Virus record (IMG/VR): IMGVR_UViG_3300003886_000001
Location: 55,666 to 119,665 of that record
Source: a virus
Strand: one strand, 5' to 3'
DNA: 64,000 bases
Within the stretch, counting starts at the first letter, position 1; each line of letters starts with the position of its first letter. Both the position numbers and the translations under genes were made by a program. This document shows, piece by piece, positions 2,037 to 34,807 of the stretch. The notes beneath the pieces were generated by a model. That model had not been told where the DNA came from and searched no databases. It saw nothing but the letters and a program-made list of their open reading frames with translations.

Positions 2037-2060
2037 ATTATATTACCATCATACATGAGA
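2037..2060 (-). promoter_or_regulatory. TCTCAT-N12-TATAAT promoter
   Basis: TCTCAT 2055-2060, 12-nt spacer, TATAAT 2037-2042. Confidence 0.7.
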
Positions 2061-2231
2061 AACATGAGTTCTCATACTTCTCATTAAAGTATGGGGTATC
2101 CTTGTTTTGTAAGTAGGGAGGTTAATGTAACGCTTCCCGGAGGTATGGGAGGCACCCCGTTAGAAGCCTCCTCCCCTGAGGTGTCTCCCTAGGATAGGGC
2201 ACCTCGGGGATTCCTTTAGGAGGAGAGATTT

Positions 2232-2531
2232 ATGCCTTGGATAATAAAAGTACCGTTTCTTGTCCCTACGTGGGCTGCTGCCCAGACTTGGGGACCAATT
2301 ATTTTGGTAAATAATAGGTATGCACTTACCACTAAAACCTTAGCACATGAATTGAGACACTATGTCCAGAGCATGTGGTTTGGTTTTATCCTGTGGCCCG
2401 CAGCTTACCTAGTTGCCTGGGCTATCGGGGGGTTTTCTTATCGCAATAATTGGTTCGAGAAGGATGCTAGAAACCATTCTGTTGACCCCCGTTATGTTAA
2501 GTGGGCTCAAAACACCAAATATCCTGTATGA
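2232..2531 (+). CDS. HExxH zincin-like protein (DUF4157-like)
   Basis: AQTWGPII...LAHELRHYVQ...NNWFEKDAR; AGGAGGAG RBS. Confidence 0.65.
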   Translation: MPWIIKVPFLVPTWAAAQTWGPIILVNNRYALTTKTLAHELRHYVQSMWFGFILWPAAYLVAWAIGGFSYRNNWFEKDARNHSVDPRYVKWAQNTKYPV

Positions 2532-2953
2532 ACACCAAACTTAAATGCCTTTGTAGTGCCTTTGAGTAGGATGTCCACTGCCTTTGTGTAGCGTGGGTTC
2601 ATGGTGTCCCATACAATACCCTTCATCAGGAGCTTGCCGTTGTTATCATATACGGCAACTTTTATTCCGCATAGTTTCTTCCCGTTTCTAAAGAACAAGT
2701 CCTGGCTTAATGCTACTTGATGGGGAAGATTCGGCCCGCAACTAGCGATACTGGGGCTGGAGTCAGTCTGGTTTTCCACGGGATTATATGCCGTGATACG
2801 CCTAAGCCTGATAATAGGGGGTAATTGTGCGGTAGGGTGGACGATGAGGCTTTTGGCTAAGGTAACATCAACTCCCATGGGGGGTATTTGTCTAGACCAT
2901 AGCAGAGTAGTAAGGCCTAGCATGATTACCAGTAGTGCAGCCATTCTAAGCAT
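2507..2953 (-). CDS. Membrane-anchored 3D-domain (MltA-like) putative peptidoglycan-active protein
   Basis: N-terminal hydrophobic anchor; ITAYNPVENQTDSSP, VALSQDL and VWDTMNPRYTKAVDI motifs. Confidence 0.75.
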   Translation of the reverse strand: MLRMAALLVIMLGLTTLLWSRQIPPMGVDVTLAKSLIVHPTAQLPPIIRLRRITAYNPVENQTDSSPSIASCGPNLPHQVALSQDLFFRNGKKLCGIKVAVYDNNGKLLMKGIVWDTMNPRYTKAVDILLKGTTKAFKFGVHTGYLVF

Positions 2954-3212
2954 GCCTAATCATCTCCGGAGAGTAACTGAGCCCGGCTAATTTGACTCCC
3001 TCTTGCTCAATCTCTTTTGTGGGGCCATGATGTTCCTGTAGGAATCCCATAACATTGTTAGGACGACACGCGGCTAGTGCCTCTTCAACCGTTTCGAAGT
3101 CCCCTAAGAATGTAGCATGAGTACCAGCTATTACCCTAACCTTGATGCTGGTACCCATGACTTCTCCTTCAAGACTCAGTTCCTGCAAGAGGAAGGGGGA
3201 AACCTCAACCAC
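2946..3212 (-). CDS. Hypothetical protein
   Basis: ORF coupled to both neighbours in the minus-strand operon. Confidence 0.6.
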   Translation of the reverse strand: MVEVSPFLLQELSLEGEVMGTSIKVRVIAGTHATFLGDFETVEEALAACRPNNVMGFLQEHHGPTKEIEQEGVKLAGLSYSPEMIRHA

Positions 3213-3567
3213 TCCACCCTACCTTTACGAGGTTAGCTACGGGCTGCGGAAGAATTTCTCCGAAGTAGTTCACGTGAGCCTTTTCTCCTTCAACGTCGAC
3301 CACCTGTACGGGAGTAGCGTACTGGATGGCATGTGCCCGGTTCTTGTAGACGTCAAGCGGGCGAACTACCGTGTCACCGGCGACAATAGGGCCATCAACT
3401 GCGACCAGCACCTTTTCCTTTTCCTTCCGGGGACGACCTACCGGACGCTTGGGGGCGTTTCGGCAAGTTGGGCACTTCAGCGGAGGCCGGCCACGACCAA
3501 GCTGTACATGCTCAAATTCGGAACCACATTCGGTACAAACCTTGGTAACTGCCTTAGTGTTTTCCAT
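3205..3567 (-). CDS. Zn-ribbon plus AT-hook putative DNA-binding protein
   Basis: CTEC...CPTC; GRGRPP and PVGRPRK; leaderless promoter. Confidence 0.75.
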   Translation of the reverse strand: MENTKAVTKVCTECGSEFEHVQLGRGRPPLKCPTCRNAPKRPVGRPRKEKEKVLVAVDGPIVAGDTVVRPLDVYKNRAHAIQYATPVQVVDVEGEKAHVNYFGEILPQPVANLVKVGWSG

Positions 3568-3573
3568 GTCTTT

Positions 3574-3597
3574 ATATTACCTCGTCTCTTTATGAGA
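3574..3597 (-). promoter_or_regulatory. TCTCAT-N12-TAATAT leaderless promoter
   Basis: TCTCAT 3592-3597, -10 at 3574-3579, ATG 6 nt later at 3567. Confidence 0.7.
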
Positions 3598-3783
3598 AGG
3601 ATGACCAAATATGGTCAAAACCTTGTCAAACTGGCAATGCTCCTCCATTTCCTTTACCTCTAGTCTAGTAGGGCTTTCATAGATGGCTAATTGCTTGCCC
3701 GGCCGGGAAGGGACCAGGTAAATCACAAAGTCCCATTCTGGGTCAGATACTTTAGTAACAAGTTGTGGTTGTCCGTATGTCAT
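3577..3783 (-). CDS. Hypothetical protein
   Basis: 68-aa ORF with ATGA overlap to the helicase stop. Confidence 0.6.
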   Translation of the reverse strand: MTYGQPQLVTKVSDPEWDFVIYLVPSRPGKQLAIYESPTRLEVKEMEEHCQFDKVLTIFGHPSHKETR

Positions 3784-5687: not shown

Positions 5688-5727
5688 ATCTAAATCCTAG
5701 CATAACTACATGAGAGCCTCCTGAGGA

Positions 5728-6467: not shown

Positions 6468-6469
6468 TT

Positions 6470-7747: not shown

Positions 7748-7748
7748 C

Positions 7749-7946: not shown

Positions 7947-7951
7947 GTCTT

Positions 7952-9473: not shown

Positions 9474-9662
9474 TCACTTGGCTTCAATTGTTACGCTGTA
9501 GTCTCCACTTTCGATGATGTTGTCTAAAAGGTCGTCCATGTTTGACGTATCTATTGCAATCATCTCATCTAGTACCCCTTGAGTCACTTTTTCCGGGGCT
9601 TTTGTAAAGTAGCCAGAGGGGTTGGCCTCGTATTCGTGAGTAAGGGTAAGCTTAAACACCAT
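9474..9662 (-). CDS. Small acidic hypothetical protein
   Basis: 62-aa ORF in operon. Confidence 0.6.
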   Translation of the reverse strand: MVFKLTLTHEYEANPSGYFTKAPEKVTQGVLDEMIAIDTSNMDDLLDNIIESGDYSVTIEAK

Positions 9663-9807
9663 CTTTATCTATCAACCTCTCTAGTCTCAAGCCTTCTTTA
9701 AGCACCTGTCGAGCCTTTCCTCGGACCTCTTGCAAAAGGGCCATGACCCGCTTTTTTCCGTAGTCTTGTCCAAACTTCCTTTTATGTGTCTTTCCCATGT
9801 CCTTATC

Positions 9808-10482
9808 CTACTTGTCCTGACGATGAGAAAGATGTGAAGTTACACGTAGTCTCCCGCGACCGTGGGCCTTGAACCCAACCGTTAGGGAACGATTTGGCTT
9901 GAAGCAGAGGCGGCATTTATCGCAGGTCATGCCAACGGTCTGGTTCGGACATACTACCACGTCACCGAAACGCTTCCCTTTAATATCATATGGCAACACT
10001 ATGACGGTATCCCAACCTGCTGCACGAGCTTCCTTTACCTCTTCCGGTTGCTCGCAGGAAGCGCTTAATGTCAAGTTTTCGGGGAACACAAACCGCTTAC
10101 GGTCAATGACCCGCCATGCATGAGTGTACCCATACATCTTTACGTCGGGGCGCTCTTTGGCCCCGAGGATGATAGCGTCAAGGTAGTCTACGTCTAGGTC
10201 GCCATCCGCCATAACATCGCCGGATACATGTAGCCGAAGGGCGGCCCCGTGGGGAATCCTCTTCAATTCCCGGAGAAAGACTTTACCGTCTTCCGTAGAG
10301 TAAGTGCCTATACTCTGTAGTCTTACATTGCCAAATTGCGCATAGCAGCCATTGTTCAACAGGCTACAATTAGTGGGGCAAGACGTACCAACTTCACGAT
10401 AGGTAGCGTAGAATGGGAGATGCTTGTTGTTGCCTACAAGTTTTCTGTTAGCTGTAGGCTTGAGTGTTACTCGGAGTGCCAT
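9808..10482 (-). CDS. Cys-rich radical-SAM-related phage protein (gp88-like)
   Basis: SCPTNCSLLNNGCYA, RLHVSGD, YGYTHAW, CPNQ..TCDKCRLC. Confidence 0.7.
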   Translation of the reverse strand: MALRVTLKPTANRKLVGNNKHLPFYATYREVGTSCPTNCSLLNNGCYAQFGNVRLQSIGTYSTEDGKVFLRELKRIPHGAALRLHVSGDVMADGDLDVDYLDAIILGAKERPDVKMYGYTHAWRVIDRKRFVFPENLTLSASCEQPEEVKEARAAGWDTVIVLPYDIKGKRFGDVVVCPNQTVGMTCDKCRLCFKPNRSLTVGFKAHGRGRLRVTSHLSHRQDK

Positions 10483-10488: not shown

Positions 10489-10553
10489 ATAATAGCGTTA
10501 AATAGTCTGAGAAGCATGAGACTAATCTTTCTCATTAACTATCAGACTAAAAT
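10489..10553. promoter_or_regulatory. Back-to-back divergent TCTCA-N12 leaderless promoters
   Basis: Minus: TCTCAG 10507-12 / TATTAT 10489-94 / ATG 10482. Plus: TAATCTTTCTCAT 10523-35 / TAAAAT 10548-53 / ATG 10559. Confidence 0.75.
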
Positions 10554-10558: not shown

Positions 10559-11050
10559 ATGGAGCAGAAAAAGGCCGTCACCCTTGCCCGGAAGTTAATG
10601 AACCAACATGGTCTAGATACATTAACGCTCAAGATAAGTAGTAGTAAACGAACCTTGGGAACCTATCAGTACAGAACAAGCGCACGTGGCGTTCACGAAC
10701 CCGTGCAGATTAAGCTGTCAAAATATTGGTTAAAAATATTGGATGAGGACCAAGTACGGGACACAGTGTTGCATGAGATTGCCCATGCGCTGACCCCTGA
10801 CCATGGCCATGACCATGTCTGGCAACAGATGGCCCGGAAACTAGGAGTTTCTCCATCTCGTACGGCCCACGATGTTCCGGTAGAAGTACAGAAACGCCTT
10901 CGCCAGAGCGTGGCAAAATACGTCGCCATCTGTGAGACCGACCCATCCCATCGGTATTATTTTAATCGTATGGGGAAATTATGGTCCGCCGGAGCATACC
11001 GCTGTCACTGCGGAGGCCGTTATCATGTTTCTCATAATTCTTCGGGATAA
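10559..11050 (+). CDS. SprT-like metalloprotease
   Basis: VRDTVLHEIAHAL..HGHDHVWQQMARKLG; C-terminal Cys pairs. Confidence 0.9.
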   Translation: MEQKKAVTLARKLMNQHGLDTLTLKISSSKRTLGTYQYRTSARGVHEPVQIKLSKYWLKILDEDQVRDTVLHEIAHALTPDHGHDHVWQQMARKLGVSPSRTAHDVPVEVQKRLRQSVAKYVAICETDPSHRYYFNRMGKLWSAGAYRCHCGGRYHVSHNSSG

Positions 11051-11053
11051 GAT
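11030..11053 (+). promoter_or_regulatory. TCTCAT-N12-TAAGAT leaderless promoter
   Basis: ATG follows 6 nt later at 11060. Confidence 0.65.
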
Positions 11054-11059: not shown

Positions 11060-11179
11060 ATGGAACAGACACTCAAGCGCTTGGCTCGTGACTATTATAG
11101 GCACAATTGCCCCCTCCCTGATTACCTACTGGCTGTAATCACCCGTTCTCCTCTTCCTTACGGTTTTTCCTCCCCATGA
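11060..11179 (+). CDS. Small protein (39 aa, not in ORF track)
   Basis: MEQTLKRLARDYYRHNCPLPDYLLAVITRSPLPYGFSSP; ATGA overlap with next gene. Confidence 0.6.
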   Translation: MEQTLKRLARDYYRHNCPLPDYLLAVITRSPLPYGFSSP

Positions 11180-11547
11180 CTTCTATAACGTTTCTTGGAG
11201 AGGTACCTAAACCTGCTCGTCAAATTGGATTAGATGTGTTATCCGGAGAGTTATGGGTAACCTGGAACCAGAGGAAGACATCGACTCAAAAGGAATGCTT
11301 ACGTAAGGCCGGGATAGAGCCGCATAAGTTTGACTGGGCAATCCTGTGGTGGGGAATTGAAGAAGTATTACCCCCAAAGGAATTGAAGACTTTACTCCGG
11401 TCGATTAAGCCACACATACAGATTCTGTTGGATAATTATAAGCTTGTAAAAGATGCGGCTGGAAACAATAAAGTTGACCTTCCAGACGGCCCCGCGAGCG
11501 CCGCTTACTACGCCATCTGTGACCTATGCGATAGCACCTACTTATAA
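11176..11547 (+). CDS. Paralog family A protein
   Basis: IGLDVLSGEL..LWWGI..TLLRSIKPHIQILLD..AICDLC. Confidence 0.8.
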   Translation: MTSITFLGEVPKPARQIGLDVLSGELWVTWNQRKTSTQKECLRKAGIEPHKFDWAILWWGIEEVLPPKELKTLLRSIKPHIQILLDNYKLVKDAAGNNKVDLPDGPASAAYYAICDLCDSTYL

Positions 11548-11548
11548 T

Positions 11549-11572
11549 TCTCATCTTTAACGGTGCTATTGT
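11549..11572 (+). promoter_or_regulatory. TCTCAT-N12-TATTGT promoter
   Basis: Followed by an AGGAGG leader to 11593. Confidence 0.65.
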
Positions 11573-11592: not shown

Positions 11593-11901
11593 ATGAAGTC
11601 GGTGAATGTGATTGCGCCTTCTGAGCTGGAAGACCATTATGTTATACTGGACTACGAGACTGGAAACTTGTCTGTAGGGTCTGGTAAAAATACCGGTATT
11701 GCTACGATTTGGAAGATTCATAAGGACTTGTCAACGCCTGCTTTGAAGATGCTTTTGCAGGATATTAAACCCTATGCACAGCAGGTGCTTGATGGTTCAC
11801 ACCCGGAGCCCGTCCTGGTTGTAATGACCAAAGAAGCGGTTCGGGCAGAAGCTGATATCTCCATCCTATGCGCGGAAGTGAGCGGCTATGAGGATTGTTA
11901 A
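11593..11901 (+). CDS. Paralog family A protein
   Basis: VILDYETGNL..IWKI..MLLQDIKPYAQQVLDG..ISILC. Confidence 0.8.
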   Translation: MKSVNVIAPSELEDHYVILDYETGNLSVGSGKNTGIATIWKIHKDLSTPALKMLLQDIKPYAQQVLDGSHPEPVLVVMTKEAVRAEADISILCAEVSGYEDC

Positions 11902-15822: not shown

Positions 15823-16128
15823 CTATTTTGTCAAGTTTGGACTCCAAAGCTTCTGAGGGCCATCATAGACCTTTGCGTCACTGTCCTTCCGTGCTTCCTC
15901 TAGCCAGAGAGACGCCTTTATCTCGTCGGCAAACGGGATGATATAATTCTCCCCACGTACAAACTTCCCGTTTACTAACTTGGCGTATTTACTGTCGGGT
16001 CCACCAACGGCATCCAAAAATGCCTCATTCTCTACCTGGTCAAAGTACAGCACCTCGATAGAGTAGGCGTCACTATCAGTCGACCTATACACCTCCGCTA
16101 CAATGTTTTCTTCTTTAATCCCCCTCAT
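15823..16128 (-). CDS. Hypothetical protein
   Basis: 101-aa ORF; ATGA overlap with upstream gene. Confidence 0.7.
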   Translation of the reverse strand: MRGIKEENIVAEVYRSTDSDAYSIEVLYFDQVENEAFLDAVGGPDSKYAKLVNGKFVRGENYIIPFADEIKASLWLEEARKDSDAKVYDGPQKLWSPNLTK

Positions 16129-16412
16129 CTCTTATGCCCTCTTTCTACGCTAGCTAGCAGCGCGTCCATGGACTGTCCGGTCTTTCCCAGGCAGTCTTTT
16201 ACTACCCGGCCGTTAGCAGGGTAGACCGCAAACTCATCGTAGGCGTGGATGATGTCCTTGGCGTATACGTCGCCCATCTCATGTTCCCACCCGAAAACAT
16301 CTACGAGGACCAACTCGTCCTTGGCGCTCTTCATGGCCTTTCGTACCACGCCGGGCCAGCCGGTTATCAGGATAACAACATCGCCCTTCTGGAGCTTCTC
16401 TTTGGTATCCAT
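16125..16412 (-). CDS. SH3/KOW-like small phage protein (leaderless)
   Basis: LQKGDVVILITGWPGVV..VDVFG..GDVYAKDI. Confidence 0.7.
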   Translation of the reverse strand: MDTKEKLQKGDVVILITGWPGVVRKAMKSAKDELVLVDVFGWEHEMGDVYAKDIIHAYDEFAVYPANGRVVKDCLGKTGQSMDALLASVERGHKR

Positions 16413-16417: not shown

Positions 16418-16448
16418 ATTTTACGTCCCTTCTGTATGAGAAGTATTA
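16418..16448 (-). promoter_or_regulatory. TAATACTTCTCAT-N12-TAAAAT leaderless promoter
   Basis: TCTCAT 16436-41, -10 at 16418-23, ATG 16412. Confidence 0.75.
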
Positions 16449-16577
16449 TCCTTTTCAAGGCATAAGTAAATCTGTAGATGCCATGTACCAAGGATGATGC
16501 GTCTATCATGCGGGCTGGCACATAGCAGTGCTTTTCCCAGTGCTACCAGGAAGGCATCCTCAGACTTCATCATAGCC

Positions 16578-17048
16578 TCAGCTTCTGTCATTCTCCGTTA
16601 CCTCAAAATCGCCCCCACAGACACTACAGCGATAGTAATTAGGGTTAGCCCAGTGTTTTCCCATCCGGTTGAAGTAAGTCCTATGCTCGGGGTTCTTTTG
16701 GCATACGGCTACGTACTTTGCCACCTTCTGCACTACGTCCCGTGTAATCTCCTCGGGAATACAGGAAGCGGTCCTCGTCGATGCAATACCAAGTTTTCTT
16801 GCTACCTGTTGCCATTCTTTCCCATGCTCTGCATCAGTGCTGCTTAACGCATGAGCTATCTCATGGAGTATGATGTACTTTACGTGCTCTGTGGGCAAAT
16901 TGGTTACCCACGGCTCCGACAAGCTGATTGTTCCCAAAAGGTAGTACCCCAGACAATGTTTCCCTTTGTTCCACGTTAAGGCTACGTCCTCTAGCCCGTT
17001 TTCGTCCATTAGCTTCCGGGCTAGTTTGGCGGCATGGCTCTTAAGCAT
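16578..17048 (-). CDS. SprT-like metalloprotease (paralog of 10559)
   Basis: YIILHEIAHAL..HGKEWQQVARKLG..VAKYVAVC. Confidence 0.9.
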   Translation of the reverse strand: MLKSHAAKLARKLMDENGLEDVALTWNKGKHCLGYYLLGTISLSEPWVTNLPTEHVKYIILHEIAHALSSTDAEHGKEWQQVARKLGIASTRTASCIPEEITRDVVQKVAKYVAVCQKNPEHRTYFNRMGKHWANPNYYRCSVCGGDFEVTENDRS

Positions 17049-17256
17049 GGTTTAACTCTGGGAGGTTCTTGCCATGAAGGGACCACCAGTCTTGGACACA
17101 AGCGTTAACGCGGTCTTCCCATATCCGAAACACGTTAAGGATGTCCCGGTCATTATCTACCGACGCCAAAGCGTGTCCCAAGTCCCTCATGAATGTATCC
17201 TTAGAGTCGGTCATGGCAAGTAATACGTAGTAGATGGCTACGTCCTTGGATTCCAT
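17041..17256 (-). CDS. Hypothetical protein (leaderless)
   Basis: 71-aa ORF; promoter 17262-17285. Confidence 0.7.
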   Translation of the reverse strand: MESKDVAIYYVLLAMTDSKDTFMRDLGHALASVDNDRDILNVFRIWEDRVNACVQDWWSLHGKNLPELNHA

Positions 17257-17261: not shown

Positions 17262-17285
17262 ATAATACCCTGTTTATAAATGAGA
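17262..17285 (-). promoter_or_regulatory. TCTCAT-N12-TATTAT leaderless promoter
   Basis: ATG 5 nt after -10. Confidence 0.7.
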
Positions 17286-17558
17286 AGGATGAGCTGATAG
17301 GTTAAAGTCCCGTAGCACACCGTCAAACTCAAACAGGTTGAAGTAGTCATCTTCCATTCTCAGAGCCGTCTTAGAGTCCACAACAGCCATCGCCTCTTTG
17401 AGGGTGGTTACCCCTGTCAGGTCCTTATCTTCCAAGCCTCTAGCCGCCCCTTTGTACACAAAGAATTCAGTATCGGAGTGATACTCTAGACGGGAGGACA
17501 CGCCGGGCTCCGGATAAGCTACTTCAACTTGCATGATTAAATCCATACTACTCTTCAC
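17274..17558 (-). CDS. Hypothetical protein
   Basis: 94-aa ORF in operon. Confidence 0.65.
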   Translation of the reverse strand: MKSSMDLIMQVEVAYPEPGVSSRLEYHSDTEFFVYKGAARGLEDKDLTGVTTLKEAMAVVDSKTALRMEDDYFNLFEFDGVLRDFNLSAHPSHL

Positions 17559-18048: not shown

Positions 18049-18079
18049 ACTATAGGCCTAGACAGAATGAGAAGTATTA
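18049..18079 (-). promoter_or_regulatory. TAATACTTCTCAT-N12-TATAGT promoter with no downstream leaderless ATG
   Basis: TCTCAT 18067-72, -10 at 18049-54. Confidence 0.7.
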
Positions 18080-18342
18080 AAGTCACAGAGGTTGCTAATA
18101 GCTTGGCTAGCTTCTTCCCTCATCTGGTATTCCACAGTGCCCTTTGGGTGGTAGTAGTAGTCCAGGAGAATTTGGGCAAATGGAAGAATAGCCCCCAGTA
18201 TGGCCAGGTCGTCCGTATCGCGCATAATTGCCCATCCTACGGTGTTGCCTGCTGGTATCGTGCGATTGATACACAAGTCGCCCGTTTCCAAATTAAGGCA
18301 TATACTCCGAGACTCCATGGACGGGGTTATTTTAACTTCCAT
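18058..18342 (-). CDS. Paralog family A protein
   Basis: ICLNLETGDL..VGWAI..ILGAILPFAQILLD..AISNLC. Confidence 0.8.
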   Translation of the reverse strand: MEVKITPSMESRSICLNLETGDLCINRTIPAGNTVGWAIMRDTDDLAILGAILPFAQILLDYYYHPKGTVEYQMREEASQAISNLCDFNTSHSV

Positions 18343-18467: not shown

Positions 18468-18491
18468 ACTATAGGCCGAGTGCGCATGAGA
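18468..18491 (-). promoter_or_regulatory. TCTCAT-N12-TATAGT promoter
   Basis: TCTCAT 18486-91, -10 at 18468-73; shares CCTAGGTAGCTATACTATAGGCC with the 18049 site. Confidence 0.7.
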
Positions 18492-18756
18492 ATGATGAGT
18501 CGCAGAGGTGGATAATTGCCCGGCTAGCGCCCATGTATGCCTGATACGCCAAGCCGTCTCTTGGAACCTCAAGGCAGTCCAGGACAATCTTGGCAAACGG
18601 GGCAACGAGGCGGAGTAGCTCGTCGGTGTCCGTAGTTGCACTGATTGACCACCCGGTGACGTGCTTGCCCCGCACCGTGTAGTCCACGTACAAGTCTCCT
18701 GTCTTATGGTCCAGGCACAGCTTGTCGCCCTTTGACGAGATTACTTTAACGTCCAC
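18469..18756 (-). CDS. Paralog family A protein
   Basis: LCLDHKTGDL..TGWSI..LLRLVAPFAKIVLD..AIIHLC. Confidence 0.8.
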   Translation of the reverse strand: MDVKVISSKGDKLCLDHKTGDLYVDYTVRGKHVTGWSISATTDTDELLRLVAPFAKIVLDCLEVPRDGLAYQAYMGASRAIIHLCDSSFSCALGL

Positions 18757-18759: not shown

Positions 18760-19056
18760 TCACTCCCTTTCCGTGCAAAGATTACTAATTGCCTCAACCG
18801 CTACCTCGTAGACATTTAACTTCACGTTGTCTGGTAAGGGGTTATGGAGGTTATCGTCGTAGTCTAGTATAATTTGGGCGAAGGGCTCGGCGGCCTTCAT
18901 AGTCTCGTGAGCATCACGGTTTAACGGAAGATACCACATAATAACGTCGGCCGACTCCGGCACTTCCGGCGCTACCGGGGCCGCTTGTAGAGTGCCCGTT
19001 ATGAGGTCCAGCCAGAGAACGTGCGGCTTAGCGGGTGGCACTACTTTGAGTTTCAT
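18760..19056 (-). CDS. Paralog family A protein (leaderless)
   Basis: LWLDLITGTL..IMWY..MKAAEPFAQIILD..AISNLC. Confidence 0.8.
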   Translation of the reverse strand: MKLKVVPPAKPHVLWLDLITGTLQAAPVAPEVPESADVIMWYLPLNRDAHETMKAAEPFAQIILDYDDNLHNPLPDNVKLNVYEVAVEAISNLCTERE

Positions 19057-19062: not shown

Positions 19063-19094
19063 AGTATAGGATAAGGACCTGTGAGAAACATTAG
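19063..19094 (-). promoter_or_regulatory. TAATGTTTCTCAC-N12-TATACT leaderless promoter
   Basis: TCTCAC 19081-86, -10 at 19063-68, ATG 19056. Confidence 0.75.
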
Positions 19095-19676: not shown

Positions 19677-19844
19677 CTACCTCATCTCCTGTAGCTTTGT
19701 CGACAGGAGATGGATTCTCTCCCGTCGCGCTTGGATGCTTTTCTTCAACTGAGGCGACCTTACCCTTCTCTGCTTGCCTTGCCAGTACAGGTCAGCGTCA
19801 AGCAGGAAAATTCTCAGGCTATCCGCAGTCTCTTTATCAATCAT
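19677..19844 (-). CDS. Small basic protein (55 aa, not in ORF track)
   Basis: MIDKETADSLRIFLLDADLYWQGKQRRVRS...; overlaps stop of upstream gene. Confidence 0.55.
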   Translation of the reverse strand: MIDKETADSLRIFLLDADLYWQGKQRRVRSPQLKKSIQARRERIHLLSTKLQEMR

Positions 19845-20094
19845 AAACAACAGGACCCTTTCCTTCTTCTTTCCGCAGCGTGTTGTACTCCGTTATAGTG
19901 ATGAACACGTCTGGGAGATAAATTGTGGTACCAAGTCGGGGGTCCTCAGGAAGTGCATCCCAACCTCGATACCCTTCATCGTAGTAGGAGACTTCGGCAC
20001 TAGTAGTACCGAGGACTACCACTTGATAGACTGTCCGAGGGTTGCCTTGGGCGTTATGTGTTGCGCAGAACCTCTGGACTGTTCTGGTAGGCAT
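19837..20094 (-). CDS. Paralog family B protein
   Basis: TVQ..RTVYQVV..DALP..IYLPDVFITITEY. Confidence 0.65.
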   Translation of the reverse strand: MPTRTVQRFCATHNAQGNPRTVYQVVVLGTTSAEVSYYDEGYRGWDALPEDPRLGTTIYLPDVFITITEYNTLRKEEGKGPVVYD

Positions 20095-20114
20095 TGTGAG
20101 TATCTCCTTTTCTT

Positions 20115-20138
20115 ATACTAGGCTAGTTTTCCATGAGA
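20115..20138 (-). promoter_or_regulatory. TCTCAT-N12-TAGTAT promoter
   Basis: TCTCAT 20133-38, -10 at 20115-20, then AAGGAG leader. Confidence 0.65.
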
Positions 20139-20464
20139 ATTATGGAAAACGGCACTCGAAACACTATGATGCCATTATCCTTGAGAAGAGTTACTAGGTT
20201 AGCAGCGCCGACGGGATTCATAGAATGCACAATGAAGACTGTATCCTGTAACAGAGAAAAGTCTACTCCTCTCAGGCTGCTATAGACGTCCTCACTTCCC
20301 AGGTCATGGTCAAGGAACACGACGTCAGCCTCACCTAGCAGTCCCGTATCAAAGACGGTAGAATGCACAACGTCGCCTCTGATACCGTGACGGCGCGCCC
20401 AAGCACGAATAGTGCCTACCCGGCAAGTATCATCGTCAATAATCAAAGCCTTTGACATACTCAT
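20123..20464 (-). CDS. Cyclic-phosphate-processing receiver (cREC)-like domain protein
   Basis: LIIDDD..VVFLDHDLG..IVHSMNPVGA. Confidence 0.8.
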   Translation of the reverse strand: MSMSKALIIDDDTCRVGTIRAWARRHGIRGDVVHSTVFDTGLLGEADVVFLDHDLGSEDVYSSLRGVDFSLLQDTVFIVHSMNPVGAANLVTLLKDNGIIVFRVPFSIILMEN

Positions 20465-20888
20465 AGAAGCTTGGCGTCCCTTCGGTCACAGTCTCGTTGT
20501 GGTAGTCAAGCCGAGCCTCACACTGGAAGCCGTACAAGTCGGCGTCCCGCTCTGTTGGCAACTTACGGTAGACGGCGGCATCGTGTACAGTCTTTGCAGC
20601 GTCAAACGAGTCTCTTGCCGTTGGCATATTGAAGTGTTGCCATACGTGCCGGGCCTCGTGCGCAATGATGACAACTACGTCCCGGACGTCAGAGCATTGC
20701 AACAGGTTAAGAAACAGGTCGGCGTGTAACGTCTCGGGGGAAGGGTATGAGACTACTACCGAGGACGACACTATGGCGCCGGTTACGGACGGGTCATGGT
20801 AAGCATGGAGCGTAAACTCTACGTCCTCAAGGTGTAAGTCCGAGATGACGTCCTGGAAAATGCTGGTAGCAACTACCTTCAATTCCAT
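20436..20888 (-). CDS. HExxH zincin-like metallopeptidase (leaderless)
   Basis: IIAHEARHVWQ..PTERDAD. Confidence 0.75.
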   Translation of the reverse strand: MELKVVATSIFQDVISDLHLEDVEFTLHAYHDPSVTGAIVSSSVVVSYPSPETLHADLFLNLLQCSDVRDVVVIIAHEARHVWQHFNMPTARDSFDAAKTVHDAAVYRKLPTERDADLYGFQCEARLDYHNETVTEGTPSFYEYVKGFDY

Positions 20889-20893: not shown

Positions 20894-20924
20894 ATGGTAT
20901 GCCACCTTAGCATGAGAAAGATTA
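20894..20924 (-). promoter_or_regulatory. TAATCTTTCTCAT-N12-TACCAT leaderless promoter
   Basis: TCTCAT 20912-17, -10 at 20894-99, ATG 20888. Confidence 0.75.
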
Positions 20925-20926
20925 GA

Positions 20927-23025: not shown

Positions 23026-23367
23026 TTACTCCTCCGCGTACTTGCTACGGTCAAGCGTACGGTGGGCGTCACCGTGCCGGTTAATCCATACCGTGCGGAC
23101 CAGCCTATCCTCGGGGTTAATGACAAGTACCAAGTCCTGCTTGCCCTGGTATGGCTGCCGGTAGACCGCTTTGACTACTTTCTGCCCTTCTACTTCCGCT
23201 TCGACCAGGACAGCCTTCCGGCTGTCAAACACTGCCGGCAGGTCAATATGGCCGTACTGGTCGGTAGTTGCAGCCTGTCGCGCATGGGCGCTGTAGCGCA
23301 ACAGTGCCGAAAATTGCAGGTTACGGGCCGGGGCCGGGAAGAAAACGTCTTTGTGATAAAGGGCCAT
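23026..23367 (-). CDS. Conserved phage protein, possible BECR/DUF4258-like RNase fold (leaderless)
   Basis: YSAHA..DLVLVI..VRTVWIN..HRTLD. Confidence 0.7.
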   Translation of the reverse strand: MALYHKDVFFPAPARNLQFSALLRYSAHARQAATTDQYGHIDLPAVFDSRKAVLVEAEVEGQKVVKAVYRQPYQGKQDLVLVINPEDRLVRTVWINRHGDAHRTLDRSKYAEE

Positions 23368-23708: not shown

Positions 23709-24026
23709 TTATCGAGCGTATCCCCACAGGGTAAGATGTTCTTTCAGCACAGGCCCTACTCTGGACGACAGGGTAGAGTCGTCGGGCAAGGTAGAAAACT
23801 CCCAGTCTGTGCCACCTACAGCTTCTAAGGCTTTGGCCAAGGCTCGCGCCTTCTTTTCACTTGGGATGTTGTCTATGATGCGGCGACCGGACGCGCAGTG
23901 ACTAATTTCCCATCCACGAATACCGCTTAAATTGTGATGGACTGCTAGGTGTTCGGTCAACACGGCTTCTATTTCTTCCGGTTTCCTCTTGCCACCGTAC
24001 ATCGGCCGGAAAGTCCCGGTTACCAT
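23709..24026 (-). CDS. Hypothetical protein
   Basis: LAVH..WEISHCASG; coupled to upstream ORF. Confidence 0.65.
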   Translation of the reverse strand: MVTGTFRPMYGGKRKPEEIEAVLTEHLAVHHNLSGIRGWEISHCASGRRIIDNIPSEKKARALAKALEAVGGTDWEFSTLPDDSTLSSRVGPVLKEHLTLWGYAR

Positions 24027-24196
24027 CCCGCGTCCTTGAGCGCACGCTTGGCGGCTGTCACAGGGCGAGTGTGCGACGCGTAGTCGTCCGCGTACAGGTA
24101 GTCCGGCAGGTCCTCGGCTGCGAGGCCGGCAATGCTTTCCATCGCGTCATTCACTTGTTTCATCCATTGTTTATAGGTCATTTTCTTGGAATCCAT
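24020..24196 (-). CDS. DUF5419-like small protein (58 aa, leaderless, not in ORF track)
   Basis: MTYKQWMKQVNDAMESIAGLAAEDLPDYLYADDY..PVTAAKRAL. Confidence 0.7.
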   Translation of the reverse strand: MDSKKMTYKQWMKQVNDAMESIAGLAAEDLPDYLYADDYASHTRPVTAAKRALKDAGW

Positions 24197-24201: not shown

Positions 24202-24232
24202 ACTATACCTGGCCCTTCTATGAGAATCATTA
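24202..24232 (-). promoter_or_regulatory. TAATGATTCTCAT-N12-TATAGT leaderless promoter
   Basis: TCTCAT 24220-25, -10 at 24202-07, ATG 24196. Confidence 0.75.
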
Positions 24233-24233
24233 G

Positions 24234-24267
24234 AAAAGACGCCCCTTGTGTAAGGGGCGCCTGTCTT
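24234..24267 (-). terminator. Intrinsic terminator
   Basis: CGCCCCTT/AAGGGGCG stem plus A-tract. Confidence 0.75.
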
Positions 24268-24980: not shown

Positions 24981-25125
24981 TCTCTGTCCTCCGCGCTGCT
25001 TCTATGGGCGTCATGCCCGCCTGGTATTCTTGCCAGTAGGGGAACGCCCCGAAGGCTTGGACCGTGAATCCCGTATGTTCGACCAGCGCTTCATTCACTT
25101 TCTGAATCCACCGTTCGAATCCCAT
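24973..25125 (-). CDS. DUF5419-like small protein (50 aa, leaderless, not in ORF track)
   Basis: MGFERWIQKVNEALVEHTG..FPYWQEYQAGMTPIEAARR. Confidence 0.7.
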   Translation of the reverse strand: MGFERWIQKVNEALVEHTGFTVQAFGAFPYWQEYQAGMTPIEAARRTENA

Positions 25126-25130
25126 ATCTG

Positions 25131-25159
25131 ACGGTATCATAAATCCGGCCGGTTAGCAA
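25131..25159 (-). promoter_or_regulatory. Sigma70-type leaderless promoter
   Basis: TTGCTA-17-TACCGT-5-ATG; near-identical to the 24629-24657 promoter. Confidence 0.75.
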
Positions 25160-25190
25160 GTCCCTAACCTTAATCATATTCTCATCATAG

Positions 25191-25218
25191 AAAAGGGCGG
25201 GTAATTAGCCCGCCCCTT
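25191..25218 (-). terminator. Intrinsic terminator
   Basis: GGGCGGG/CCCGCCC stem plus A-tract. Confidence 0.75.
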
Positions 25219-25222
25219 AGTC

Positions 25223-25720
25223 TCAGAATCGCTTCGCGCATACAGGGCCGATACCTGCTTCAATCGAAACCGGGTCGGTGAGCGTGCGGCCACAGATACC
25301 GCATACTCCTAATTCGTGGCCGTAGCGCGCGGCTGCTACCTTAGGGTCGGCCAGAACGCTTTTCAGCACGTCGCAGTAGGCGCCGGCGTAGAATCGCTTC
25401 GGAGTCTGTGCCCCAAGTTTGCGGTAGTCGTCGGAAGTCTGTGCTTTGACGAATATCCACCCGGCCCACCGTCCGCGGTCGACCTTGTCCACCTTGAGGA
25501 ACCGCATGATGCCCTGAGAATCCGGCGCGGCATAATGCCCGCTTGGAATACCTGACAGGTCAATGGTAGGGGCGGTTACCCGCAGCGTGAACAGGCGCTT
25601 AATCTCACGGGAAGCATCCGAGACACTAGGACTGTTCCCGAGGAAGGCGCGGGCGGAGCCTTGACAAGAACGCTCGCCGGCCAGCTTCATAATGAACGAT
25701 ACCTGCTTAGTCGTTGCCAT
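25223..25720 (-). CDS. DUF6011-like Zn-finger protein (leaderless)
   Basis: GVCGICGRTLTDPVSIEAGIGPVC; N-terminal ATTKQVSFI. Confidence 0.85.
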   Translation of the reverse strand: MATTKQVSFIMKLAGERSCQGSARAFLGNSPSVSDASREIKRLFTLRVTAPTIDLSGIPSGHYAAPDSQGIMRFLKVDKVDRGRWAGWIFVKAQTSDDYRKLGAQTPKRFYAGAYCDVLKSVLADPKVAAARYGHELGVCGICGRTLTDPVSIEAGIGPVCAKRF

Positions 25721-25765: not shown

Positions 25766-26275
25766 CTTAATCATTCTCTCATGTTCTACTCACTAATCTT
25801 TCTCTCATACTAAGGCCATACATCCACATATACATAGCTTAATCCTCTCATAAAGACAGGTTATTCCACATCTACCTCTCATGTACACAGTATTTTCTCA
25901 TGATTCTTTCATGATTCTTTCATAATGTACTCATACTCGATGATTAACATGAGAAGATGAGAGCTTTTTCACATTTAGAGCTTATTTTTCTCTCATATTC
26001 TCATCTGCGGCCCGTCTTTTTCTCATGATAATTTGGTGATAATGCATATTACCTTCATGTTTCACATACTTCTGGCCCATATTATCATCAGAATCTCATG
26101 AGACTCTCATATATCCCTAGTTTCTCTAATTCTTCTCTCATACTTTCCTCATCTTAGACTCACGTACTTAGTATACTCTCATGTAAATGGTTATATTCTC
26201 ATGTTTCACATGAAATTATCATCGTTTTCTCATAACCCCTGGGGTTTGAAAGCAAATCGGAGTCCCTGTTCTCAT
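25766..26275. repeat. Dense array of TCTCAT hexamers in a non-coding region
   Basis: 18 exact copies counted (15 on plus, 3 on minus) between 25777 and 26275. Confidence 0.9.
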
Positions 26276-26339
26276 AATCGGCCGCCCTCCCCCTTTATCA
26301 CCCCTAGGGGTATTTTTCAAACAAAACGGACTAAGCCCT

Positions 26340-26432
26340 CTATAAAAACCCCAAATTTAAAAATAAATAAACTTTTAGAAAAAAGGGAGTTAATAACCAA
26401 CTATAAAAACCCCAAATTTAAAAATAAATAAA
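26340..26432 (+). repeat. Perfect 32-bp AT-rich direct repeat
   Basis: CTATAAAAACCCCAAATTTAAAAATAAATAAA at 26340-26371 and 26401-26432. Confidence 0.95.
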
Positions 26433-26580
26433 ATCTGGGGAAGACACCTAAAAACTCAAGTTTAAAAATCTGGGAAGGAAACCCCCAAATCTAGGAAGAT
26501 TCTGGAAAGAAAAAATAAAATCTAGGGAGGAAAATTGTCTGGGGATAGAAATTCTGTAGAGATAATCTGGGAAGGAAACC
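26431..26580 (+). repeat. AATCT(G/A)GG iteron-like repeats
   Basis: 17-bp AATCTGGGAAGGAAACC at 26467 and 26564, plus partial copies near 26431, 26488 and 26518. Confidence 0.85.
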
Positions 26581-26619
26581 TAATAATGAAAAACATGGTG
26601 AGTAAAAAATCATAAAATG

Positions 26620-27268: not shown

Positions 27269-27490
27269 CTAAACAGCCGTTTGTTCTTCATCCACGGGGG
27301 AGAAGTTATCGGGCTGTAATAGCTCTGATTGTATTTCTTCAAGGGATGAGATTATGTAACTTACCTCTTCGCGGAGACTAGAAAATTCTTTTATAGTCAT
27401 TGCTACTTCTAGGTATTCTACTATGGATATATCAGCTATAAGCTCTGTTATAGCGTCCAATTTTGCTTCTAGAGTTTTGAAGTTATACAT
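27269..27490 (-). CDS. Acidic helical protein, possible family C
   Basis: Heptad pattern LEAKLDAITELIADI. Confidence 0.6.
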   Translation of the reverse strand: MYNFKTLEAKLDAITELIADISIVEYLEVAMTIKEFSSLREEVSYIISSLEEIQSELLQPDNFSPVDEEQTAV

Positions 27491-31930: not shown

Positions 31931-32115
31931 TGGTTCAACAAAAAGTATTACACTTTAACTCAATGATAACCTATGATGCTTGGTTGTCTCTCCACAAAGA
32001 AAGGGTAGTAATTACATCAATTTCTGCCCCAGAAGAAACCTTTGCCTACATTTTGGCTTATCAGTTACCGTTGCCGGTAATGACGGTTAACTATCTGGAG
32101 TTCCCTAATGACTAA
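31930..32115 (+). CDS. Hypothetical protein
   Basis: Coupled TAATG start. Confidence 0.55.
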   Translation: MVQQKVLHFNSMITYDAWLSLHKERVVITSISAPEETFAYILAYQLPLPVMTVNYLEFPND

Positions 32116-32893
32116 GATATATGCGTGGATTGCAGGAGTTACAAGTCAAGAAATTCCTAAATTATTAAGTATTTTTGGAGGGAAGGTAGGTGGTGTCTTA
32201 TACTCTTATAATTATGATTTGCTTTTAACCCCGGGAAATTGGATTGCATTTGTAGGTAATTTAAATGATGCAAAAAAACTAGTGAAGACCGGTGGGAGGG
32301 TCGTTACTGCTCTAATTGAAGATGAGGTAAATATAACCGGGCTGTCCGGCCCCGCTAGAACACCAGAAAGCTATGCTACTGGGTATAATCTAATTTATGA
32401 CCTATTACACCAGAATGGGATAGCAGTTAGCACAGGAGGTTTGGCTGGGCAGCCCGGCTGGGCCTCATACATGACGTTTAATACTAAGTTTGATGCAAAA
32501 TACTTTTCAAAGATGATGCCTCTACTACATGGGGCTGACTATAACGCGTTTAATCCGGGCCAAAACAGACTACAAGAAATAGAGAGAATCTTAGGAACCT
32601 ATACCGATAGAAAATGGCTATTTAGCCCGCACCCTCTAAATCCTCAGTGGTGGCCATTAAAATGGAACAATATACCTGCATACATTTTAGAAAATTACAT
32701 CTATCATGAAAACATGGACTTCTGGATAAAGAAGAGCAAAGACCCCAGATTATTAGGAATAGCAATCTGGAGCCTTAGATACAATTGGATGAATATTGAT
32801 GGTAAACGAGTTTTACAGCGTTACTGTAATCTTTTAACTGAAAAAAATGAATTAACAGTTGTTGGACGACAACTACAGCGAGGTCTAAAATGA
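32108..32893 (+). CDS. Hypothetical protein, possibly glycoside-hydrolase-like barrel
   Basis: Aromatic-rich; GIAVSTGG, LLGIAIWSL; fold is a guess. Confidence 0.55.
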   Translation: MTKIYAWIAGVTSQEIPKLLSIFGGKVGGVLYSYNYDLLLTPGNWIAFVGNLNDAKKLVKTGGRVVTALIEDEVNITGLSGPARTPESYATGYNLIYDLLHQNGIAVSTGGLAGQPGWASYMTFNTKFDAKYFSKMMPLLHGADYNAFNPGQNRLQEIERILGTYTDRKWLFSPHPLNPQWWPLKWNNIPAYILENYIYHENMDFWIKKSKDPRLLGIAIWSLRYNWMNIDGKRVLQRYCNLLTEKNELTVVGRQLQRGLK

Positions 32894-33717
32894 TTGTTCC
32901 CGATTTTATTTATAAAAAGGCCGAATGGGAGGATTTACCAACCCAAGCCAACTCCAATTACCCTAAGATTGTCATCGAAGACACCGGGGCAAGAGTAGTA
33001 AATTCGGGGTCAGTCACATTAACTACTGGGGACAAGTTCTTTTTGCAGCCACCAGACAGTAATTTTGGAACTGTATACAACTATTTGACCTATTCTAATA
33101 AGGATGGTGCATATGTGATTCGATATGTAAATAGTGGAGAGCCATGGTCATCTCCAACTAGCTCAAATGGCCAACAACTATCGTTTACCTACGGTACATC
33201 AATGCCTTTTACCGGGGTTACTCAACTCGATTACTTGGCAAACGTTGTAAGTGATTTCTGGTTTAGTGCAGGTAGTACGGTAGTAACTACGGACGGAACT
33301 CATATCTTTATCTTTTCCAATCTCAACAATTCCTCTCCAGTATATGCTCTAAATTTAGATGGTACTATTGCTTGGAAAAGAACATTACCTACCTCAGTTA
33401 TCTCTGTCTTTTCTATTAAGGACGGGGTCTTTTATATTGATACCTCAGTCACCAATACCCCTAATTCTGGGGACATGGCTATGAATCTAGTTAAACTAAA
33501 TACCACGGATGGTACTGACCATTATACTATGAATGTAACTACCCTACCCTCTGGAACTACAATAGACGAGAATACAAGGTCGATGTTTTACTATTTTGCA
33601 GATGGAACTATTATTTTGTACGCAAATACTATCGGCCACTTTGCCGTCGATGTAGTAAACAAACTAGTAACTAATTTAACCTCATCATCTACTTCGGATT
33701 TACTTGCTATAGTATAG
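32890..33717 (+). CDS. Beta-rich protein with PQQ-like propeller blades
   Basis: VYALNLDGTIAWKR, LVKLNTTDG. Confidence 0.6.
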   Translation: MIVPDFIYKKAEWEDLPTQANSNYPKIVIEDTGARVVNSGSVTLTTGDKFFLQPPDSNFGTVYNYLTYSNKDGAYVIRYVNSGEPWSSPTSSNGQQLSFTYGTSMPFTGVTQLDYLANVVSDFWFSAGSTVVTTDGTHIFIFSNLNNSSPVYALNLDGTIAWKRTLPTSVISVFSIKDGVFYIDTSVTNTPNSGDMAMNLVKLNTTDGTDHYTMNVTTLPSGTTIDENTRSMFYYFADGTIILYANTIGHFAVDVVNKLVTNLTSSSTSDLLAIV

Positions 33718-33727
33718 GAGTAAAGAT

Positions 33728-34480
33728 ATGGCACAAACATTTGGGATACAAATACTAACTCTTGCACCAAATTTAGTTAATATACAACATAATAAGACTA
33801 CTACCTATCTCTTAGGAGCTTGCGGAGCTGCTTCCTCAAGCTCTGGCGTAGCTCAGGGGGACCCCATGATAGAGTCTATTTCAACTAATGCCCCGTATAC
33901 CCGTAATTGGTTTAAGTCGATGCTGTCGTACAACTTTTACACACTACACAATGCTGCATATGATGGTACAAATCTATATTATGTCTATACTAACTCATCA
34001 ACCTATGCAACCATGTTCCACGCAATTGACGGGGCTACAGGTAATGATGTTTACGCCCCAGTACAGCTGTCTACTGGGGATGTAATGGGGGCGTTCTCTA
34101 CAAAGAGTGGTGTTTTTATTGTATACGATGATAGTGCGTCTACTCCCTCATTTAAATCTATTTCATTACTTACTGGGGCTATAACTACAGGTCTTTCTAT
34201 CCCTTCAGCTAATTCTAACGCTTGGTGGTGGTATGGAAATCCTATATTTACTGGAAATGATACTTTTGTACAATTATACTATGACACTACGAGTATTAGG
34301 TGCGCGATTTTAGATAAAACAGCGTCTGGAGTTACTATTCCAATTAAAGTAAATGGGACGCTCGTCCCTCCTCCTACACAACACCCTACTTTTGGGTATG
34401 CGGTATCTCCGGTAGGGACAAAATCTTTGTATGCTGTTAATACAGAGGCTTCTGAAGTAGCTAAGTTTACTATTCCGTAA
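33728..34480 (+). CDS. Beta-rich protein with PQQ-like propeller blades
   Basis: AYDGTNLYYV, FHAIDGATG, SISLLTG. Confidence 0.6.
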   Translation: MAQTFGIQILTLAPNLVNIQHNKTTTYLLGACGAASSSSGVAQGDPMIESISTNAPYTRNWFKSMLSYNFYTLHNAAYDGTNLYYVYTNSSTYATMFHAIDGATGNDVYAPVQLSTGDVMGAFSTKSGVFIVYDDSASTPSFKSISLLTGAITTGLSIPSANSNAWWWYGNPIFTGNDTFVQLYYDTTSIRCAILDKTASGVTIPIKVNGTLVPPPTQHPTFGYAVSPVGTKSLYAVNTEASEVAKFTIP

Positions 34481-34778
34481 GTTCTGATTCCTTTTCCCAT
34501 CCTGCTAGGATGTCCTCTAAAACCCATACCTCATAACCTCCATTAATAGTTACGAGATATTCATGGTCTATGACATCCCATTTAGTACCTTGTATAGGTA
34601 GTTGTCTAGTCTCTTTTACCCCATTAATACGGCAGCGATGAAAGCTGTACGCGCATACAGGAACAAGCCAACGAGTATTTCGAAATACTGCATACCCAGT
34701 ATTCTGAACACCTGTATTAACGTCTACCTCATGTACACCTATTTTAACGTTTACCATTTCTCCAAGTTTATATCTCAT
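34470..34778 (-). CDS. Hypothetical protein (leaderless)
   Basis: Promoter 34784-34807. Confidence 0.65.
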   Translation of the reverse strand: MRYKLGEMVNVKIGVHEVDVNTGVQNTGYAVFRNTRWLVPVCAYSFHRCRINGVKETRQLPIQGTKWDVIDHEYLVTINGGYEVWVLEDILAGWEKESELTE

Positions 34779-34783
34779 AAGCT

Positions 34784-34807
34784 AACGTACACCCAGAGAG
34801 AATGAGA
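34784..34807 (-). promoter_or_regulatory. TCTCAT-N12-TACGTT leaderless promoter
   Basis: TCTCAT 34802-07, -10 at 34784-89, ATG 34778. Confidence 0.7.

Follow-up and report, generated by a model that had tools for sequence, protein, structure and literature searches.

Here we describe a promoter class in a 64,000 nt stretch of phage DNA, hereafter the window. The window corresponds to bases 55,666–119,665 of the linear, 119,665 bp IMG/VR virus record IMGVR_UViG_3300003886_000001 (G000). Promoters of this class consist of two upstream boxes, a spacer of 12 nt and a -10 element of the form TAnnnT, and have no -35 element. We call them the T class. Four related genomes of uncultured phages share this class, which is one of three promoter classes found there. 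These sites are probably promoters for host RNA polymerase with sigma-A, at which a factor on the tandem boxes replaces the -35 contact.

The pattern TCTCAT-N12-TAnnnT occurs 17 times in the window. The expectation from 100 dinucleotide shuffles was 0.63 ± 0.81, with 3 as the largest count. In the whole record, 23 matches have a spacer of 12 nt (1.7 ± 1.2 by chance). The remaining spacers from 5 to 24 nt gave 0–9 matches each, so that enrichment was seen at 12 only. An earlier reading of the window from sequence (the original prediction) had called for this comparison with shuffled controls; the excess is present in the window and in the whole record. All 15 hexamer positions given by that reading are correct, with TAnnnT exactly 12 nt 3' of each. 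Twelve of these are on the minus strand and three on the plus. Hence, at the 12 sites the plus strand reads ATGAGA, CTGAGA or GTGAGA. The list was not complete, and omitted good sites at 2079 (+), 9828 (-) and 36651 (+). One other match, at 27351 (-), is within a gene, has no upstream box and is probably due to chance. A literature search for the motif matched only primer sequences.

We compared G000 with three relatives. G001 (201,951 bp) and G007 (194,021 bp) are both 97% complete. L178 is a 16 kb Logan contig with a G+C content of 52% that carries the early region. For G000, the CheckV completeness is 72% and the G+C content 42%. The G001 portal and the G007 DNA polymerase are 76% and 59% identical, respectively, to their G000 counterparts. 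There are 35 TCTCAT-N12-TAnnnT sites in G001; a reversed-pattern control, using the TTCTCAT form that itself gave 30 matches, found 0. G007 contains 26 sites (control, 4) and L178 has nine in 11 kb (spacer 11–12; TCTCAT/C/G). The motif annotates 20–45 transcription units per phage genome. One promoter kept at orthologous positions (window 36651 and G001 16848) precedes the gene upstream of DNA polymerase. A 190 kb contig, G003, has 8 sites against 4 in its control. In an extended-motif scan of viral contigs, those among the matches listed were single chance matches. The closest named phages to G000 are the Thermus phages phiYS40 and TMA, with a portal identity of 46%. Kinship with phiYS40 is distant, with matches for only 12 G000 proteins, and the phiYS40 genome has 0 TCTCAT-N12-TAnnnT sites (control, 0). 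A PhoH-based scan of bacterial genomes for the host gave only matches of 23–45% identity in unrelated phyla.

In its complete form, the element reads CT(A/C)A(T/C)-N3-TCTCA(T/C), a direct repeat at approximately -38 to -25. If the -10 is set at -12 to -7, the proximal box spans -30 to -25 and the distal box -38 to -34. The box period is 9 bp. Both boxes have the same orientation and always point with transcription. Across G000, G001 and G007 the consensus is tCT(A/C)A(T/C)-nn-T-TCTCA(T/C)-a, N12, TAnnnT. The distal box in G007 is mostly CTCAC or CTCAT. Hence, the general form of the box is CTMAY. The TAAT-N3 extension previously noticed upstream of some hexamers proved real: it is the 3' part of the second box, CT(A/C)AT, which starts 9 nt before the CTCAT core. 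Absence of TTGACA was likewise borne out, since no site is among the sigma-70-like matches of a consensus scan. Between 15500 and 26500, none of the T-class sites reaches 9/12 in this TTGACA/TAnnnT scan, whereas the canonical sites of the region do. Two divergent, back-to-back pairs place four boxes in approximately 33 bp (2060/2079 and 10512/10530).

Double boxes were also picked with no requirement for a -10 element. Among 85 such boxes from the three genomes, TAnnnT was found at spacer 12 in 60 and at spacer 11 in 14. From base composition, we estimate that approximately 2 would be expected per offset. The 12 nt spacer of these 85 elements carries no sequence information. Hence, the sites are not recent copies of one another, and are kept by selection on the boxes and the distance.

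The location of the sites is consistent with promoter function. While 83–88% of each genome is coding, 85–90% of T-class sites are outside coding cores. An open reading frame of at least 40 codons starts on the same strand within 70 nt in 70/88 sites, and 36 of those 70 starts are 5–7 nt past the -10. Some sites are directly behind terminator-like hairpins (hairpin/site: 24262/24225, 20953/20917 and 19123/19086). The T-tail of the terminator at 24262–24237 extends into the distal box of the promoter behind it. Others are upstream of tRNA genes, the mature 5' end being 8–14 nt past the -10.

Ten of the 15 originally listed sites were said to have an ATG 5–6 nt past the -10. We recovered all ten (3597, 10512, 10530, 11030, 16441, 17285, 19086, 20917, 24225 and 34807); the ATG at the 11030 site opens merely 39 codons. 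The description of the class as mostly leaderless holds for that list but not beyond it. Overall, the share is approximately 40% and canonical promoters, with an ATG 5–6 nt past the -10 in approximately 30–40% of cases, are alike. Hence, leaderless starts are a trait of the phage–host system and not specific to the T class. Gene starts in the annotation are corrected because many genes begin 5–6 nt past a -10 without a ribosome-binding site. In the Deinococcus–Thermus group, a -10 motif adjoining the open reading frame (TANNNT, a few bases before the start codon) leads to leaderless mRNA (PMC12340547). Leaderless genes of Deinococcus radiodurans are driven by the -10 motif alone, and the -35 merely enhances expression (PMC12340547). 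This geometry is common to all promoter classes of the phage. However, the bacterial promoters have no conserved upstream box, whereas the T class has a rigidly spaced double box (PMC12340547).

The other two classes are canonical promoters and sites that consist of TATAAT only (Table 1). As canonical TTGACA sites are present, an ordinary -35 must be read by the host polymerase. The TATAAT-only boxes, for example at window 47289–47325, 49250–49327 and 58260–58322, and in the orthologous regions of G001 and G007, are likely to be a third, late promoter class, judged by their sequence and setting. Canonical and late promoters have -10 hexamers closer to TATAAT than the T class does.

Genes in the window encode portal, DNA polymerase, helicase, tail and head proteins, and tRNA nucleotidyltransferase. 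The remainder of the record encodes rIIA/rIIB, DNA ligase, RtcB, RNA ligase, PhoH and the clamp loader. Many T-class genes are small and of no assigned function. The others include rIIA/rIIB, DNA ligase, RtcB, RNA ligase, the clamp loader, a SprT-like protein, a DUF7227 protein and tRNA clusters. DNA polymerase is served via an internal promoter. Its operon has tandem promoters, one canonical (36236) and one T-class (36651). There are 32 tRNA genes in G000, 29 in G001 and 31 in G007. A few clusters in G000, at 49005–55543 of the record and just upstream of the window, are served by canonical and T-class promoters alike.

This gene set resembles the delayed-early and middle genes of T4, and it is from gene content only that we infer 'middle' timing. 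In T4, the MotA box stands in for the -35, with 12 ± 1 bp between it and the -10 (PMC2988021). The MotA-like placement proposed originally is supported by the 12 bp between box and -10 (PMC2988021). T4 middle promoters and the T class share further properties. Both have a host-type -10, a phage-specific box centred near -30 in place of the -35, and dozens of copies per genome. Both serve rIIA/rIIB, ligase, replication genes and tRNAs, and both occur in a tandem early-plus-middle arrangement. Conversely, the sequences differ (CTMAY-N3-TCTCAY compared with (a/t)(a/t)(a/t)TGCTTtA), and the T class has a two-box direct repeat reaching -38 where T4 has a single 9 bp MotA box. Only here are approximately 40% of transcripts predicted to be leaderless and boxes found in arrays without -10 elements; no MotA or AsiA homologue was found. 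By analogy, the T class appears to work like a T4 middle promoter while standing outside that family.

Other activators bind direct repeats that straddle the -35 region or take its place, a set few base pairs from the -10, where the promoter has a poor -35 or none. Examples are lambda CII, at PRE, PI and PaQ, and PhoB at the pho box. The T class appears to work in a similar manner but belongs to neither family. The repeat period is 9 bp in the T class, compared with 10 bp for the CII site (TTGC-N6-TTGC) and 11 bp for the pho box. For a CII-type factor, the repeat differs and, although no CII-specific search was made, the families that Pfam scans listed for conserved proteins include no regulator. 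Replacement of the -35 by a box specific to a phage lineage is an established phenomenon; the motif, the lineage and the putative reader would be new. If the factor is a new protein, it would be another case of -35 replacement beside MotA/AsiA, CII and PhoB.

From sequence, we infer that sigma-A RNA polymerase reads the T class, that a trans-acting factor binds the boxes, and that this factor activates rather than represses. In this model, the primary sigma factor of the host would read the TAnnnT -10 in the ordinary way and transcription would start 6–7 nt past it. For approximately 40% of the sites, this predicted start coincides with the A of the initiation codon. Two boxes would stand in for the -35 hexamer, (T)CTCA(T/C) at approximately -30 to -25 and CT(A/C)A(T/C) farther upstream, at approximately -38 to -34. 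A sequence-specific protein would bind these boxes head-to-tail, 9 bp apart and held 12 (sometimes 11) bp from the -10. The factor could then provide the contact that sigma region 4 usually makes, by touching sigma or RNA polymerase, or after remodelling of sigma. The result would be a separate switch for small accessory genes, rIIA/rIIB, DNA and RNA ligases, the clamp loader, DNA polymerase and tRNAs. In favour of a shared polymerase, the distance from the -10 to the ATG is 5–6 nt in canonical and T-class promoters alike. The rigid 12 bp distance, the polarity of the direct repeat and the weaker -10 hexamers argue for direct geometry with the polymerase.

Some observations weigh against this interpretation. 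No box-binding protein was found in searches of three genomes. P0001, an early protein considered as the box factor and described below, was rejected on account of a RelE-like fold rather than a DNA-binding one. Furthermore, a -10 alone can suffice in Deinococcus–Thermus (PMC12340547), so the boxes may be dispensable for polymerase recruitment and could be negative control sites. The corresponding alternative is that the -10 is self-sufficient and that the double box is an operator. A repressor or timing switch, from phage or host, would hold the class off until, or after, a certain stage. The leaderless genes of D. radiodurans that need only a -10 are a precedent (PMC12340547). The middle and late promoters reported for phiYS40, described below, also speak for this alternative. 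Once occupied, boxes at -38 to -25 would block RNA polymerase, and arrays without -10 elements could titrate a repressor. However, the distance is fixed at 12 or 11 bp in 74/85 cases while the spacer sequence is free, and an operator that acts by overlapping RNA polymerase has no need of such a fixed distance. In addition, the direct repeats always point with transcription, and -10 hexamers removed from TATAAT fit promoters that need help. We consider a repressor operator unlikely.

Different evidence bears on a Fur-family operator of the host, of 7-1-7 type, which had been named as an alternative. The boxes are AT-rich, and the words TCAT and TAAT resemble parts of the Fur box. Even so, the boxes form a 9 bp direct repeat of fixed polarity and not an inverted repeat of two heptamers. 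They are also locked 12 bp from the -10 and occur 20–45 times per phage genome before unrelated genes. This alternative fails on the fixed orientation of the repeats, and we give it almost no credence.

To return to activation at a host-type promoter, the box factor may be phage-encoded and of no recognisable family, or may be host-encoded. We searched G000, G001 and G007 for known readers. Sigma region 2 and 4 domains (PF04542, PF04545 and PF08281) were absent from the three genomes, bar one sub-threshold match. This r4_2 helix-turn-helix match, in G001, was rejected as a sigma factor, since the protein, encoded in the tRNA region, is a homing endonuclease of the HNH type. MotA_activ (PF09114) and MotCF (PF09158) had no match at E ≤ 10, a result that covers two genomes of 97% completeness among the three and leaves room for a relative at the level of fold. 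AsiA (PF09010) also had no match at E ≤ 10, and the OmpR-type winged helix Trans_reg_C (PF00486) had none. When 63 conserved small proteins were compared with Pfam and PHROGs, the 25 matches listed of 29–31 included no regulator family, and approximately 40 single-protein scans with the same resources gave none. Hence, the proposal of a phage-specific class served by host RNA polymerase and an activator or sigma remodeller stands in part. There is a separate class with a sigma-70-type -10 and T4-like genes, but no MotA, AsiA, sigma or OmpR-type homologue in three genomes.

One alternative is that the reader belongs to the host, being either an alternative sigma factor or a transcription factor that controls a regulon there, and that the phage copied the host signal. 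This overlaps with our preferred mechanism. The motif is near-constant across phages whose proteins are 35–76% identical and whose G+C content ranges from 42 to 52%. A constant motif against diverging phage proteins makes a host-encoded reader a serious alternative. The search for a conserved, early, DNA-binding phage protein also found none. On the other hand, a novel factor may still hide in one phage genome that is 72% complete and two that are 97% complete. For a host sigma factor, the spacing is wrong: TCTCAT is 12 nt and the upstream box 21 nt from the -10, whereas the -35 spacing of the sigma-70 family is 16–18 nt. To our knowledge, the motif matches no described sigma consensus. We regard a host reader as possible but doubtful.

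A diverged sigma factor or RNA polymerase encoded by the phage could also be the reader. A number of large conserved proteins match no family, for example one of 1056 residues at 41539–44709, and the Thermus phage P23-45 has cryptic RNA polymerases. However, the -10 and its distance to the start are the same as in canonical TTGACA promoters. No sigma region 2/4, single-subunit RNA polymerase or Rpb1 domain was found. Specifically, PF00940 and PF00623 had no match in the phages, although the PF00940 search says little as control genomes also gave none. A cryptic enzyme of this kind is very unlikely.

Of the early genes, only that for P0001 (window 23026–23367, minus strand, 113 residues) was found in each of the four genomes. 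Homologues are at G001 35227–35565, G007 185608–185949 and L178 969–1310. In every case, the gene follows a canonical promoter, TTGAC(A/G)-N16-17, and its start is leaderless. A structure model (predicted local distance difference test score 92.7) best matched the toxins RelE, BrnT, MqsR and HigB, with Z of 4–5.6. On this model, P0001 is more likely to be an RNase than a DNA binder. T4 RegB is an early nuclease that cuts Shine-Dalgarno sites and has a RelE-like fold. By analogy, if P0001 is a RegB-like nuclease, it would spare the many leaderless mRNAs of the phage. Just upstream of the G007 homologue, at 185290–185560, is a perfect canonical promoter (TTGACA-N17-TATACT) followed by approximately 230 nt without an obvious open reading frame, and a hairpin with a T run at the end. 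By its sequence, this locus may encode a small RNA.

A protein of 192 residues without a Pfam match is syntenic in three genomes (G000 19902–20480, outside the window, L220:103–681; G001 109609–110154; G007 44764–45306). Its model has a LAGLIDADG homing endonuclease fold, and also matches WhiA (8dy7_I), a transcription factor derived from LAGLIDADG proteins. By eye, the catalytic acidic residue is missing from both LAGLIDADG helices. Hence, as modelled, the protein may be a domesticated DNA-binding protein, and it is a weak candidate for the box reader. Counting against this role, its gene is in a T-class operon and the two-fold pseudo-symmetric scaffold suits a direct repeat poorly. A DUF6011 protein (25223–25720), encoded beside the array described next, was rejected as a common factor because, of the four genomes, only G000 and L178 encode it. 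Separately, a stand-alone, receiver-like protein with a weak cREC_REC match is encoded in the early regions of 3/4 genomes (window 20123–20464, minus strand; G001 25059–25400; L178 2703–3080).

Boxes also occur in non-coding arrays. Downstream (3') of the G000 array (Table 1) is an A-rich block, at 26340–26600, with its own repeats, AAAACCCCAAATTTAAAAAT. The G001 array has 27 CTCAT cores in approximately 600 bp, again without -10 elements, and adjoins a T-rich block; array and block together fall within 33400–34260. The array also contains the word TTATCCACA, the DnaA-box consensus. Gaps of 11, 20–22, 31 and 42 bp between array cores are common. The vector strength at a 10.5 bp period was 0.41 and 0.31, and helical phasing of the array boxes was not significant. 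The equivalent place in G007 and L178 has other repeats. As the arrays have no -10 elements, the CTCAT box exists as a stand-alone unit. The array boxes are most simply read as predicted protein-binding sites, and the array as a whole may be a replication origin or may titrate the box factor. An extended model is that the lineage redirects RNA polymerase in its own way. A factor of no known family, on CTMAY boxes at -38 and -29, would replace sigma region 4. In some members, it would also load onto an array of 20–27 boxes by AT-rich repeats, a candidate origin. The main early/middle transcription programme would thereby be coupled either to replication or to the factor being titrated. We propose this version tentatively, and think it less than likely.

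The middle and late promoters of phiYS40 reportedly have only a -10-like element and, according to Sevostyanova et al. in 2007, are transcribed in vitro by the host holoenzyme. The same study is said to have reported no phage RNA polymerase, many leaderless transcripts and no conserved upstream element. Reportedly, it also found no cis element or factor that separates gene classes. The phages described here share with phiYS40 promoters that have a -10-like element but lack a -35, the leaderless geometry and the lack of a detected phage RNA polymerase. They differ by the conserved double box, which the phiYS40 genome does not have. The TATAAT-only boxes of late genes fit phiYS40-type promoters better than the T class does. 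Our results bear on a question left by the phiYS40 study, namely how gene timing is set in large phages of the Thermus type that have no RNA polymerase of their own. As a cis element that is sharp, conserved and rigid in its geometry, the double box is a handle for finding the factor.

Table 1. Promoter classes, T-class promoters and the box array of the window. SD, Shine-Dalgarno; ORF, open reading frame; aa, amino acids.
Feature	Position	Strand	Elements	Genes and remarks
Canonical class	7980, 15834, 19210, 22262, 22796, 23400, 36236, 45514		TTGACA-N16-18-TAnnnT	smaller gene set, including P0001 and start of DNA polymerase operon
T class			double box and TAnnnT with N12 between them; -35 absent	accessory, replication and repair genes, tRNAs
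TATAAT-only class			near-perfect TATAAT, no -35, no box	structural genes, SD leader
T-class promoter	2037..2068	-	CTCAT-gtt-TCTCAT-N12-TATAAT	1839-2018 (59 aa), short SD leader; back-to-back with 2071-2102
T-class promoter	2071..2102	+	CTCAT-act-TCTCAT-N12-TATCCT	nearest ORF 2232-2531, ~130 nt downstream
T-class promoter	3574..3605	-	gTCAT-cct-TCTCAT-N12-TAATAT	ATG 6 nt past -10; leaderless 3205-3567 (120 aa, zinc-ribbon-like)
T-class promoter	9805..9836	-	cACAT-ctt-TCTCAT-N12-TAGGAT	ATG 6 nt past -10; leaderless 9652-9798 (48 aa)
T-class promoter	10489..10520	-	CTCAT-gct-TCTCAG-N12-TATTAT	leaderless 9808-10482 (224 aa, DUF7227/GP88); back-to-back with 10522-10553
T-class promoter	10522..10553	+	CTAAT-ctt-TCTCAT-N12-TAAAAT	leaderless 10559-11050 (163 aa, SprT-like)
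T-class promoter	11022..11053	+	aTCAT-gtt-TCTCAT-N12-TAAGAT	ATG 6 nt past -10, 39-codon ORF, then 11176-11547
T-class promoter, weak distal box	11541..11572	+	ttATA-at-TCTCAT-N12-TATTGT	SD-led 11593-11901 (102 aa)
T-class promoter	16418..16449	-	aTAAT-act-TCTCAT-N12-TAAAAT	leaderless 16125-16412 (95 aa)
T-class promoter	17262..17293	-	CTCAT-cct-TCTCAT-N12-TATTAT	leaderless 17041-17256 (71 aa)
T-class promoter	18049..18080	-	tTAAT-act-TCTCAT-N12-TATAGT	no adjoining ORF
T-class promoter	18468..18499	-	CTCAT-cat-TCTCAT-N12-TATAGT	~125-nt leader, SD-led 18058-18342 (94 aa)
T-class promoter	19063..19094	-	CTAAT-gtt-TCTCAC-N12-TATACT	leaderless 18760-19056 (98 aa); adjoins terminator-like hairpin 19123-19106
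T-class promoter	20115..20146	-	tCCAT-aat-TCTCAT-N12-TAGTAT	SD-led 19837-20094 (85 aa)
T-class promoter	20894..20925	-	CTAAT-ctt-TCTCAT-N12-TACCAT	leaderless 20436-20888 (150 aa); adjoins terminator hairpin 20953-20926
T-class promoter	24202..24233	-	CTAAT-gat-TCTCAT-N12-TATAGT	leaderless 24020-24196 (58 aa, weak DUF5419 match)
T-class promoter	34784..34815	-	CTCAT-aac-TCTCAT-N12-TACGTT	leaderless 34470-34778 (102 aa)
T-class promoter	36643..36674	+	CTCAT-cct-TCTCAT-N12-TAATCT	in 3' end of 36272-36721; serves 36718-37059 and DNA polymerase 37056-39164
Non-coding array	25766..26290	+	~20 CTCAT cores in 525 bp (17 forward, 3 reverse)	none with a -10 at 12 nt

An Rfam scan of the window matched no family, including at the two leaders that begin with ATAGCTACCTAGG. 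These leaders belong to a pair of minus-strand promoters (18049–18072 and 18468–18491) that share the -10 TATAGT and, from their predicted starts, the first 13 transcribed bases, ATAGCTACCTAGG. By this likeness, the two could be paralogous leaders or small RNAs.

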